A stretch of 64,000 bases of DNA from sequence record MK327940.1; one strand, given 5' to 3'. Both the position numbers and the translations under genes were made by a program. Below, piece after piece: positions 3,787 through 7,803 of the stretch (positions within the stretch are counted from its first letter, which is position 1; each line of letters starts with the position of its first letter). This DNA comes from Escherichia phage vB_EcoM_G29. The notes under the pieces are model-generated. The model was not told where the DNA came from and searched no databases. It saw only the letters and a list, made by a program, of their open reading frames with translations.

Positions 3787-3988
3787 TTTTCACCTTTTTA
3801 TTAATATGCCTTTTTCTATAGACAACTTTTTCTCGAGTTTCAAATTTATTCTTAGCAGTCATAGCTCGAGCCCATAATACAGCCACTTCTTTCGCCTGTA
3901 AGTTTAATTCACGAGCAATTTCAATGAATGACTTTCCAGACTCATGAAGAGTAAACACCACAACCTCAGTTCTCATAATCAATCTCAT
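3773..3988 (-). CDS. Hypothetical small basic protein (position of T4 24.3)
   Basis: 71-aa ORF overlapping the downstream ORF by 14 nt; lysine/arginine-rich C-terminus. Confidence 0.55.
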   Translation of the reverse strand: MRLIMRTEVVVFTLHESGKSFIEIARELNLQAKEVAVLWARAMTAKNKFETREKVVYRKRHINKKVKNGTV

Positions 3989-4043
3989 GTTATCGAGTTG
4001 ATGCCATTATATACATCATTTTCTGAGTATGTTTTGTGTGCTT

Positions 4044-4073
4044 TCAAAATGAAGAAAGGGGCCGAAGCCCCTT
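4044..4073 (-). terminator. Terminator after hoc (minus strand)
   Basis: GGGGC-UUCG-GCCCC hairpin followed on the minus strand by uuucuucauuuu. Confidence 0.65.
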
Positions 4074-4077
4074 ATGA

Positions 4078-5551
4078 TTATGGATAGGTATAGATGATAC
4101 CAGTTTCTAAAGCAGTTTTATGAATGATGTATCCATTGCGTGATTCTTGAACATCAACTTCTGGATAGTCTTTCATCATCTTCTGAAGAGTGTAACGATG
4201 CAGGTAGTATTTACTATCTGGATCTTCAGTTTTCCAATCTTTACCTTCTTCGGTCATTTTTTGGATTTCATCCATAACCCACCAACCGCACCAGATATAA
4301 GCTGAAGTGCGATGTGGAAGAGGATGAACATAAGGCAATTCACCTTCTGGTTCCGGAGCAACTTTATCAGTTACCTGAACTTGGCCTGTTGCTTTAACTG
4401 TTTTACTATCATAGTCGGTTGCTGTAACGGTTGCAGTAACTTCAATAGTTTGACTTCCAATAGATGATGTATCAACCGTGTATACATTAGTTGATTCTTC
4501 TACAGGAGAAGAATCTTTCTTCCATGAATATTCGATTTGTGCTTCTTCTGGAGCATCCGTAACATTAGCAGTAAATGTAGCCGAAGCATCTTGCTGAACG
4601 TTAATAGAAGGAGGAGTCAATGTAACCTGTGGATTCATTGTCTTCTTATTAACTGTTAATGATACTTCATTAGAAGTAACTTCCTTTTCATTGTAATTTT
4701 CAGCCGTTACTTGGGCTACGCATTTAATTCTTTTTACTCCACTTGTAGTTGGAGTATAGTTAAATGTAGAGTTAGTTTCTCCACCAATTTGAGAATCATC
4801 TACATACCATTTATATGTAGCAGACGCTCCATCAGGTTGAGAAACCAAGGCAGCAGTAAATTGAACTGGGGTTCCAATTACTCCAGCTGGAGGACTATCA
4901 GGAGTTACTGCCAAGGTAGTTGTCTGCGTCTTTTTATTAACAGTCAGTGACACTTCATTGGAAGTAACTTCCTTTGTATCATAATCTGTCGCGGTTACTT
5001 GAGCTACGCACTTAATTGTTTTAACTCCGCTTGCGTCAGGAGTGTAATTGAATGTAGTGCTAGTTGCTTCGCCCACAGGAGAACCGTCAACGTACCATTG
5101 ATACGTAGCGTTTGCACCTGATGGCTGTGAAGCTAAGGCAGCCAACGTACCATTGATACGTAGCGTTTGCACCTGATGGCTGTGAAGCTAAGGCAGCGGT
5201 AAATTCAATTGGAGTTCCAATCACTCCAGCATCAGGGCTACCAGGAGTTACTGCCAAAGTAGTTGTTTGTGTCTTATTTTGAACTGTGATAGTTGTACTA
5301 ATTTCAGCTGTTTCAGGTTCAGATTCTGCAACTTGATTGGTTGCAACTACTTTAATAGTCTTTTGACCGGCAGGTCCTTTTAGTACATAACTAAAAGTTG
5401 CTGACGTTTCTTCCTGTGGAGCGTCGTCTACAGTCCAAGCATATGTAATAGGTCCATCTCCAGTTTGACCACTGGGTGTAGCAGTAAACTGCTGAGTCTG
5501 ATCTATAACTCCAGTAGGTGTTTTAGGAGTTATATCAACTGTAAAAGCCAT
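4078..5551 (-). pseudogene. hoc: hoc (outer capsid protein with Ig-like domains), frame broken by a 55-bp tandem duplication
   Basis: Two overlapping minus-strand ORFs (5087..5551 and 4078..5172) together encode repeated Ig-like ~95-aa domains (QTTTLAVTP...VSLTVNKKT) plus a C-terminal region (LPYVHPLPH...WCGWWVMDEIQ); the break coincides with a perfect direct repeat at 5088-5197. Confidence 0.8.
5088..5197. repeat. Perfect 55-bp tandem direct duplication (2 copies: 5088-5142 and 5143-5197)
   Basis: caacgtaccattgatacgtagcgtttgcacctgatggctgtgaagctaaggcagc occurs twice back-to-back with 100% identity; 55 is not a multiple of 3. Confidence 0.95.
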
Positions 5552-5560
5552 AAGTTATCC

Positions 5561-6241
5561 TTATTTTAATGTTACGAAAGAAGAATTACGTGTTTCACGA
5601 ATTAGAACTGATCCGTCACGATTAATGTAGTAAATTAAGCTAAATAAAGTTTGGTGTGCCGACGCATGTTCAAAACTAGTTGGGTGAGATTTCCAATCTG
5701 GGGTTTCAGCAATCCATTGATAAATCCACCAAGGAACAGTGCAGAATCCTGGATTTTTTCCAATCAGCTGAAGATTCGGACTAAAGTTTTCCGGAAGAGT
5801 AAATACAGACGGCTTTTCAGATTCAATAATCTCAGCTACAGCCTGTTCGAATTTTTCTTCAACAAAAGGAGTATCTTCAATTAAAACAGTGGTATTTTCA
5901 GGAATTTTATCCGTTTCTACTACTTCAATTTTAATGTCAGATTTAACCGGAGAATCAATCAGAAGTGCTGCCTCTGGATTGACTTCTTCATCGTCATATT
6001 TTAATCCGTCTGCGGCATCAGCAGCATCAATTAAGTCTTTAATAGATAACCCATCAGTCTCTGGCATAGGTTCACTAGCGAGCTTCTGGAGAGCTTCTTC
6101 AATATCATTAACGATATTATCAAAAGATTTATTCTTTTTGACCTTTATACCAAACTGTTCAGCATATTCAGCTAATTTAGCTTTAGCTTCTTTATTATCA
6201 TCAAGAGCCTTCAGCTCTGCAATATAATCTTTATCTATCAT
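5561..6241 (-). CDS. inh: Inh-like protein (inhibitor of prohead protease), acidic
   Basis: 226-aa ORF between hoc and uvsW, the position and size of T4 inh; name assigned by synteny. Confidence 0.65.
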   Translation of the reverse strand: MIDKDYIAELKALDDNKEAKAKLAEYAEQFGIKVKKNKSFDNIVNDIEEALQKLASEPMPETDGLSIKDLIDAADAADGLKYDDEEVNPEAALLIDSPVKSDIKIEVVETDKIPENTTVLIEDTPFVEEKFEQAVAEIIESEKPSVFTLPENFSPNLQLIGKNPGFCTVPWWIYQWIAETPDWKSHPTSFEHASAHQTLFSLIYYINRDGSVLIRETRNSSFVTLK

Positions 6242-6254
6242 AATATTTCCTCAG

Positions 6255-6262
6255 TATAAATA
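6255..6262 (+). promoter_or_regulatory. Late promoter (TATAAATA) for uvsW
   Basis: Exact TATAAATA 30 nt upstream of the uvsW ATG at 6292. Confidence 0.65.
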
Positions 6263-6291
6263 TAGATATATTTATTACATGGTATTTAGAC

Positions 6292-7803
6292 ATGACTGAC
6301 ATTAAAGTACATTTTTATGATTTTAGTCACGTGAGAATTGATTGCGAAGAAAGTACATTTCATGAACTCCGTGATTTCTTTAGCTTTGAAGCTGATGGGT
6401 ATCGTTTTAATCCGAAGTACAAATATGGCCACTGGGATGGACGAATTCGTCTTTTAGATTATAATCGCCTTCTTCCATTCGGTTTAGTCGGGCAAATTAA
6501 AAAGTTCTGCGATAACTTTGGCTATAAAGCCTGGATTGACCCACAGATTAACGAAAAAGAAGAATTATCAAGAAAAGATTTTGATGAATGGCTTTCTAAA
6601 TTAGAAATCTATTCAGGAAATAAAAGAATTGAACCACACTGGTATCAAAAAGATGCAGTGTTCGAAGGATTAGTTAATCGTCGTAGAATTCTTAATCTTC
6701 CAACATCCGCTGGTAAATCTTTAATTCAAGCTTTGCTTGCGCGATATTATTTGGAAAATTATGAAGGTAAAATTCTTATCATTGTTCCAACAACTGCTTT
6801 AACAACTCAGATGGCTGATGACTTTGTTGATTATCGTTTATTCAGTCATGCAATGATAAAGAAAATCGGTGGTGGAGCATCAAAAGATGATAAATATAAA
6901 AATGATGCACCAGTCGTTGTTGGTACATGGCAAACTGTAGTAAAACAACCGAAAGAATGGTTCTCACAGTTTGGAATGATGATGAATGATGAATGCCATC
7001 TTGCTACAGGAAAAAGTATTTCATCTATCATATCAGGTTTAAATAACTGCATGTTCAAATTTGGTCTATCTGGTTCATTACGTGATGGCAAAGCCAATAT
7101 CATGCAGTATGTTGGAATGTTTGGTGAAATATTTAAGCCAGTAACGACTTCTAAGTTAATGGAAGATGGACAAGTAACTGAGCTAAAAATTAATAGTATT
7201 TTTCTTCGCTATCCCGATGAGTTCACTACTAAATTAAAGGGAAAAACTTATCAAGAAGAAATAAAAATTATTACGGGGCTTAGTAAAAGAAATAAATGGA
7301 TCGCTAAATTGGCTATTAAGCTTGCACAAAAAGATGAAAACGCTTTTGTCATGTTTAAACATGTATCACATGGTAAAGCTATTTTCGATTTAATTAAAAA
7401 TGAATACGATAAAGTTTATTACGTATCAGGGGAAGTTGATACCGAAACCCGCAATATAATGAAAACCTTAGCTGAAAATGGTAAAGGAATAATTATAGTA
7501 GCTAGTTATGGTGTATTTTCTACTGGTATTTCAGTTAAAAATCTGCATCACGTTGTTTTAGCGCACGGTGTTAAATCAAAAATCATTGTATTACAAACAA
7601 TCGGTCGTGTATTACGTAAGCATGGTTCTAAAACAATCGCAACAGTCTGGGACCTCATAGATGACTGTGGTGTCAAGCCAAAATCTGCTAATACTAAAAA
7701 GAAATATGTTCACTTGAACTATCTTTTAAAACACGGCATTGATCGTATTCAGCGCTACGCAGATGAAAAATTTAATTACGTAATGAAAACAGTTAATTTA
7801 TAA
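6292..7803 (+). CDS. uvsW: UvsW DNA helicase (SF2, DECH box)
   Basis: 503-aa ORF with Walker A (PTSAGKS) and DECH motifs; position between inh and uvsY as in T4. Confidence 0.9.
   Translation: MTDIKVHFYDFSHVRIDCEESTFHELRDFFSFEADGYRFNPKYKYGHWDGRIRLLDYNRLLPFGLVGQIKKFCDNFGYKAWIDPQINEKEELSRKDFDEWLSKLEIYSGNKRIEPHWYQKDAVFEGLVNRRRILNLPTSAGKSLIQALLARYYLENYEGKILIIVPTTALTTQMADDFVDYRLFSHAMIKKIGGGASKDDKYKNDAPVVVGTWQTVVKQPKEWFSQFGMMMNDECHLATGKSISSIISGLNNCMFKFGLSGSLRDGKANIMQYVGMFGEIFKPVTTSKLMEDGQVTELKINSIFLRYPDEFTTKLKGKTYQEEIKIITGLSKRNKWIAKLAIKLAQKDENAFVMFKHVSHGKAIFDLIKNEYDKVYYVSGEVDTETRNIMKTLAENGKGIIIVASYGVFSTGISVKNLHHVVLAHGVKSKIIVLQTIGRVLRKHGSKTIATVWDLIDDCGVKPKSANTKKKYVHLNYLLKHGIDRIQRYADEKFNYVMKTVNL

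Follow-up and report, generated by a model that had tools for sequence, protein, structure and literature searches.

A frameshifted four-Ig hoc allele in Escherichia phage vB_EcoM_G29, and copy-number variation of the domain 2 cassette in Tequatrovirus Hoc

Escherichia phage vB_EcoM_G29 carries, on the minus strand of the stretch analyzed here (64,000 nucleotides of record MK327940.1, hereafter the window), a gene for the highly immunogenic outer capsid protein, Hoc, that is split into two overlapping open reading frames (ORFs), one at 5087..5551 (154 aa) and one at 4078..5172 (364 aa). The locus raises two questions: whether the gene encodes one Ig-like domain more than Hoc of phage T4, as an initial annotation of the sequence had claimed, and, if so, how such a domain was gained. 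Our reading, to which we give a probability of about 90%, is that the locus is a Tequatrovirus hoc gene, of the four-Ig allele of the G4500 type, that has been broken by a duplication and in which the copy number of the domain 2 (D2) cassette is labile. When one copy of a 55-bp tandem duplication is removed, the two ORFs become a single ORF of 1419 nt encoding 472 aa (the repaired Hoc). The features of the locus are the following, with domains numbered in residues of the repaired protein:

4078..5551, minus strand: hoc, four-Ig allele, frameshift-disrupted (from the ORFs and the alignment to T4 Hoc)
5270..5551, minus strand: Ig-like domain 1 (D1), aa 1-94; 74/94 aa identical to T4 D1
4927..5269, minus strand: Ig-like domain 2a (D2a), the domain that is extra with respect to T4, aa 95-190; 223/288 nt identical to T4 D2
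5088..5197, no strand assigned: perfect tandem duplication of 55 bp (two copies) inside D2a, at D2a nt 73-127 (Tandem Repeats Finder)
4639..4926, minus strand: Ig-like domain 2b (D2b), aa 191-286, the nearer of the two to T4 D2; 257/288 nt and 84/96 aa identical to it
4357..4638, minus strand: Ig-like domain 3 (D3), aa 287-380, beginning MNPQVTLTPP; Pfam Ig_3 and I-set at aa 289-374
4416..4440, no strand assigned: 12-nt tandem repeat (2.1 copies) in D3, encoding VTATVTA (tandem-repeat listing)
4081..4356, minus strand: C-terminal capsid-binding domain, aa 381-472; aligned up to residue 376 of 5vf3_Z
4078-4080, minus strand: hoc stop codon
4057..4072, minus strand: GC-rich hairpin terminator, GGGGCCGAAGCCCC, directly 3' of hoc; a putative terminator is annotated at the equivalent site in G4500 and G4507
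5561..6241: inh, upstream of hoc, a T4-type neighbour
6292..7803: uvsW

The genes around hoc are those of the T4 head region and stand in T4 order, with inh upstream and the terminator, 24.3, 24.2 and rnlB downstream. Comparison of the window ORFs with the annotations of T4, G4500 and G4507 also places hoc in its conserved genome position, running in the opposite direction to gene 24 and uvsW. The homing-endonuclease gene segE, found at the inh-uvsW spot in T4 and G4507, is missing from the window (6242-6291, between inh and uvsW) and from G4500; its presence or absence separates the otherwise near-identical G4500 and G4507.

The two middle domains, D2a and D2b, each run over 96 aa from QTTTLAVTP to SLTVNKKT. 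They align without gaps, in an exact 288-nt register, with 74/96 amino acids and 219/288 nucleotides identical; in the G29 window D2a takes up 343 nt, owing to the 55-bp duplication inside it. T4 Hoc has 376 aa and a single D2, and the repaired G29 Hoc is exactly 96 aa longer. In the HMMER alignment residues 1-124 of the repaired Hoc correspond to T4 residues 1-124, and residues 189-472 to T4 residues 93-376, with 96 residues left over. A phmmer search against PDB matched the repaired Hoc to the T4 Hoc chain 5vf3_Z with an E-value of 5e-221, and over the C-terminal 92 aa its identity to T4 Hoc is 97.8%. A D2-specific HMM found two strong copies in the repaired Hoc (one at aa 95-190 with 187 bits, one at aa 191-286 with 196 bits) versus one in T4, with four Ig-type matches versus three.

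Thus the repaired Hoc has four Ig-like domains, one beyond T4, with matches far beyond chance. The initial annotation was right about the extra domain, and also in giving T4 Hoc as a protein of 376 aa, roughly one domain shorter. Its domain layout stands as well, although the repaired protein is longer than the approximately 465 aa it had given, and the strong likeness that it saw between the middle domains amounts to 76% in DNA and 77% in protein instead of about 80% in DNA. Pfam models recover Ig-like domains in the repaired ORF: PF00801 (PKD) scored 42.6 bits against a cut-off of 23.5, its best stretch lying at aa 195-267 in D2b, and PF13895 (Ig_2) scored 30.0 bits against a gathering threshold of 27. 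Other Ig and PKD models, including Ig_3 and I-set, were near or below their cut-offs. The D2a stretch covers matches to Ig_2, PKD_3 and BiPBP_C.

The sequence search of PDB with the repaired Hoc returned T4 Hoc entries only, without retrieving the crystal structure of RB49 Hoc, and the Ig fold was therefore judged by structure comparison with Foldseek. An AlphaFold2 model was built on a public Hoc of 472 aa (P0010), 95% identical to the repaired G29 Hoc. The model predicts four consecutive all-beta domains: over residues 1-380 most blocks of ten residues have a pLDDT of 83-96, the lowest being 79, and D1 is all-beta with 83-94 per block. The C-terminal domain is modelled with low confidence (pLDDT below 50), probably because the underlying alignment is shallow, with sequences 93% identical on average. 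The top Foldseek matches of the model in PDB were strings of four Ig or Ig-like domains, with E-values of about 1e-12, among them the four N-terminal Ig domains of Dscam1, D1-D4 of ICAM-5, sidekick and bacterial adhesins.

How common is the longer protein? Sixty of the 680 phage records that matched were drawn as a spread sample, and the length of hoc was read from how far the match extended in each; this span was used instead of coverage, which is not discriminating because non-collinear pieces are joined. In this sample 21 records had the span of a four-Ig hoc (about 1731-1758 bp) and 29 that of a three-Ig hoc (about 1442-1457 bp), the latter including T4, RB18, RB33 and RB51, and a single record had a span of 1171 bp. 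The four-Ig length is therefore present in about 42% of the Tequatrovirus records that could be clearly scored (about 21/50). Protein clusters, with D2 and Ig-type matches counted with the D2-specific HMM, divide into the same classes and one longer. Among the best 120 clusters, 81 have a Hoc of 372-377 aa with one strong D2 copy and three Ig-type matches, 30 have a Hoc of 468 or 472 aa with two strong D2 copies and four Ig-type matches, and nine have a Hoc of 567-570 aa with three strong D2 copies and five Ig-type matches; in this last class P0052 (567 aa) is an exception, with two strong D2 matches and five Ig-type matches. A step of 96 aa separates the length classes.

The repaired Hoc belongs to the four-Ig, 472-aa Tequatrovirus class, with two 96-aa D2 cassettes, a then b, between D1 and D3. 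Its four domains set it apart from the three of T4, T2, T6, RB5 (376 aa), RB18, RB33 and RB51; T2 and T6 have one D2 copy each, and hoc is fragmented in both of their records. Relative to these phages the domain is extra, as the initial annotation had supposed with respect to T4; RB27, however, also has a four-Ig Hoc, annotated at 472 aa with two D2 copies. The four-Ig Hoc is a common, catalogued allele, already known and not peculiar to G29. Since an identical protein is already annotated and variation in domain number has already been published, the extra domain is correctly recognized but not new.

Both longer and shorter forms occur. Hocs of 568-570 aa that have five Ig domains, three of them D2-type cassettes, were observed on a public contig (L027:1501-3207) and in proteins P0001-P0008; the three copies on L027 are 76-82% identical in DNA, and the Escherichia phages UGKSEcP1 and UGKSEcP2 have Hocs of 568 and 570 aa. 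At the other end, Escherichia phage vB_Eco_EH2 (OZ034684.1; L034:379-1224) has a Hoc of 281 aa with two Ig domains, in which D1 breaks off after residue 39 and continues, in register, as the tail of a D2 domain at the conserved TYxW motif. By its sequence, the two-Ig Hoc of EH2 appears to be a product of inter-domain recombination. Domain numbers in Tequatrovirus Hoc thus span from two to five Ig domains.

We next consider how the D2 array evolves. D2a and D2b differ at 69/288 nt, with dS 0.99, dN 0.15 and omega 0.15 (Nei-Gojobori). A dS of about 1 with an omega of 0.15 indicates that the two types of D2 are old and that both are under purifying selection. A recent duplication of D2 within this lineage was considered and is rejected on account of the dS of about 1. 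Near-isogenic hoc alleles with a single D2, 0-3 nt from G29 outside D2, were found on two public contigs from short-read metagenome or SRA assemblies. The first (L026, Logan ERR12864205; 1501-2631) is identical to G29 in D1 (282/282 nt), in D3 and the C-terminal domain (561/561 nt) and downstream of the gene (700/700 nt). At informative sites 3 and 12 its only D2 reads as a-type, whereas all informative sites from 29 onward read as b-type. Since the change from a to b falls between sites 12 and 29, the switch must lie inside a run of 16 nt, nt 13-28, that is identical in D2a and D2b; it is one of only two identical stretches of at least 12 nt between the copies, and none is longer. The hybrid D2 of L026 is the product that would be expected from recombination between D2a and D2b deleting one cassette of a tandem like that of the window.

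The second contig (L024, from a human gut metagenome; 721-1851) matches G29 outside D2 at 281/282 nt and 559/561 nt, and its D2 is a-type at all informative sites but the last. An origin by deletion may be proposed for this allele too, on the strength of that single informative site, nt 288; the direction of copy-number change is demonstrated for one allele alone, that of L026. It is unlikely that assembly skipped one of two copies in L024 or L026, given the 24% divergence between copies and the absence of any identical run longer than 16 nt.

Mixed D2 domains are found in reference phages as well. In T6 the head of D2 is a-type and the tail b-type, and T4 D2 is for the most part b-type with a patch of a-type. 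T2 has the opposite polarity to T6, a b-type head and an a-type tail; since simple deletion in an a-b tandem does not give this arrangement, it needs allelic recombination or gene conversion. Nucleotide painting of a and b types is usable for near-isogenic loci alone, and typing at the protein level uses three informative columns only, not enough to place crossovers in the family as a whole. Typed in this way, the single-copy Hocs of 376 aa carry an a-type D2 in 33 cases, a b-type D2 in 37 and a mixed one in 12, and in the four-Ig Hocs the first copy is a-type in 25/26 and the second b-type in 23/26.

These observations fit a model in which D2a and D2b are tandem copies, long diverged, of a single 288-nt domain cassette, whose gain and loss give rise to the two to five Ig domains seen across Tequatrovirus. 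In this model copy number is altered by unequal or short-homology recombination between the copies, which also leaves hybrid domains with junctions in short runs common to both. By analogy with T4 Hoc, each added Ig domain would make a longer fibre at the centre of the gp23 hexamer and provide one more glycan- or surface-binding module. As a tentative extension, more doubtful than the model itself, the D2 cassette may be a fast-changing copy-number module, gained and lost through short homologies among otherwise identical genomes, on which selection may act to tune fibre length or glycan-binding avidity to the gut environment. The near-isogenic alleles with one and two copies, and their hybrid junctions, speak for such rapid gain and loss.

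The tandem may have been assembled in another way: two diverged single-copy alleles of D2, one a-type and one b-type, could have been joined by an unequal illegitimate crossover during co-infection, in which case the 76% identity would date the split of the alleles and not the duplication. The similar frequency of the two types among single-copy Hocs and the nearly constant a-then-b order of the four-Ig Hocs agree with such a joining, as does the fact that the D1-D2 and D2-D3 boundaries have only a short microhomology in common, AAGACA. However, the hybrid of L026 is a single-copy allele derived from the tandem by deletion, so that the single-copy a and b alleles could all be secondary losses, and the frequencies come from the three protein columns mentioned above. 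Joined alleles and duplication in situ moreover predict the same present-day anatomy, and the roughly equal frequency of a-type and b-type single copies leaves the two indistinguishable. We regard the joining of alleles as a rather unlikely origin, and keep as our reading a four-Ig allele with a labile cassette. The older internal duplication proposed in the initial annotation holds as far as an old divergence is concerned, but its in-situ origin is inseparable from a joining of alleles.

The two copies of the 55-bp unit abut directly, both within D2a. The unit begins with CAACG and ends with GCAGC, is preceded by T and followed by G, and its ends have no microhomology. The duplication is the sole difference between G29 and G4500/G4507 over window positions 3900-5700. 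It had been suggested that the repetitive Ig array makes hoc prone to slippage and that this produced the fresh duplication. Repeat-driven changes of length do occur in hoc: domain copy number varies, a public Hoc of 468 aa (P0009, 99% identical) lacks exactly 4 aa at the 12-nt repeat at 4416-4440, and in several public records hoc is split by shifts of +/-1 nt. However, the 55-bp copies lie within one domain, without a base of microhomology between their ends and the flanks, and their 55-nt period is unrelated to the 288-nt period of the domains or to the runs identical between D2a and D2b. Nor was the junction found in the three public collections searched: in the best-matching phage records listed both of its halves map to one 55-bp stretch, and it was absent from IMG/VR and JGI metagenome contigs. 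Slippage of the Ig array is thus an improbable source of the duplication, and that claim of the initial annotation is left unsupported.

Altered or disrupted forms of hoc are frequent in public records. The loss of 4 aa in P0009 at the D3 repeat looks like a slippage polymorphism. The gene is in two or three fragments in T2 (AP018813, L028:5598-6581) and T6 (AP018814, L029:6704-7835), and is also fragmented in FriedrichMiescher (L030), vb_GEC_SH_GT (L031) and 101117BS1 (L032). A frame change falls at nearly the same point of D2 in T2 and T6 (aa 65-66), with further changes in T2. The fragmentation may reflect either errors of sequencing or genuine knock-outs of a gene that the phage can do without.

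Finally, some public hoc records are visibly fragmented and misassembly is a well-known problem with tandem repeats, but an artefact of assembly or sequencing, a collapsed or expanded repeat, is rejected as the source of the extra domain and has a negligible probability, as copies differing at 69 positions are not a mis-joined identical repeat, both keep an open frame with a dN/dS of 0.15, and dozens of isolates that were sequenced independently, RB27 and RefSeq genomes among them, share the architecture, as do 30 of the best 120 protein clusters.

What does the duplication do to the gene? It shifts the frame by +1 after codon 136, so that 136 native residues are followed by 18 out-of-frame residues and a stop codon, and the N-terminal product is without the C-terminal capsid anchor. 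The locus encodes both the N-terminal string of Ig domains and a homologue of the capsid-binding domain of T4 Hoc (residues 281-376) that characterize T4-type Hoc proteins, a domain whose role in capsid binding has been described (PMC10385173); the intact frame that joins string and anchor in Hoc is absent from the G29 window. The frameshift in D2a would thus yield an N-terminal Hoc without anchor, and no Hoc on the capsid, a loss expected to be tolerated given that Hoc is non-essential. In T4, each gp23 hexamer carries one Hoc molecule at its centre, and growth does not require the protein (PMC10385173, PMC10580926); the T4 HAP1 nonsense mutant has no Hoc on its capsid and is still viable (PMC10580926). 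By analogy with this mutant, the G29 allele is most likely a viable Hoc-null in which capsid display is abolished. An anchored fragment of Hoc might in principle arise by internal re-initiation, although the 364-aa ORF starts at a GTG codon that no recognisable Shine-Dalgarno motif precedes. Programmed frameshifting was also considered and rejected, as nothing points to it and the public form of the gene is intact. The G29 gene is hoc by descent and probably a null allele.

The discovery value of the locus is small, because the protein is already public as Hoc and variable Ig number is already in the literature; its practical implications are modest. Users of Hoc for display, vaccine platforms or mucus adherence should expect a longer, four-Ig fibre in about 40% of natural Tequatrovirus. 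Annotation pipelines should treat the G29 gene as a frameshifted pseudogene, and the capsid of a phage carrying such an allele is probably devoid of Hoc. A natural series for the effect of an extra Ig domain is offered by the near-isogenic alleles with one and two copies.

Variation in the number of Hoc domains is, in general, already published. Hoc homologues carry from 1 to 10 Ig-like domains (PMC10385173), the number varies widely, and the Hoc of PMBT63 has an extra Ig domain with respect to T4 (PMC13435897). In the literature searched we found general statements and accounts of other phages, with no explicit account of a four-Ig Tequatrovirus Hoc or of a duplication of domain 2, and D2 polymorphism within Tequatrovirus was not found there.

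Among known systems the closest are G4500 and G4507, which are 100% identical in DNA to window positions 3900-5700 apart from the duplication. Their records span 1746 bp versus 1801 bp in G29 and therefore lack the 55-bp duplication, and their hoc is an intact gene of 1419 nt and 472 aa. The protein is named "PKD domain protein" (QBO65873.1) and "Hoc-like head decoration" (YP_010070559.1) in these phages, and both share the inh-hoc-24.3-rnlB context with the G29 window. T4 Hoc (NP_049793.1, 376 aa; PDB 5vf3 chain Z and related entries) belongs to the same family and occupies the same genome position, but has one D2 and three Ig domains, in contrast to D2a plus D2b and four Ig domains in the repaired G29 Hoc; T4 D2 is 87.5% identical to G29 D2b. 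RB27 Hoc has the same architecture as the repaired protein, with Ig domains 81-95% identical and a C-terminal domain 99% identical. The Hocs of RB27, UGKSEcP1, UGKSEcP2 and EH2 are all made from D1, D2-type cassettes, D3 and the C-terminal domain: the long Hocs of UGKSEcP1 and UGKSEcP2 have three D2-type copies, and in EH2 a D1/D2 hybrid replaces the separate D1 and D2. The Hoc-like proteins of PMBT63, PNJ-9 and Muldoon, as described in the respective papers, also place a string of Ig domains on a conserved capsid-binding domain, with a domain count unlike that of T4; the PNJ-9 protein is without domain 3 (PMC11853027), and that of Serratia phage Muldoon has 10 Ig domains (PMC10385173). These are more distant phages and, going by those descriptions, the domains that changed in them are not the D2 cassette.
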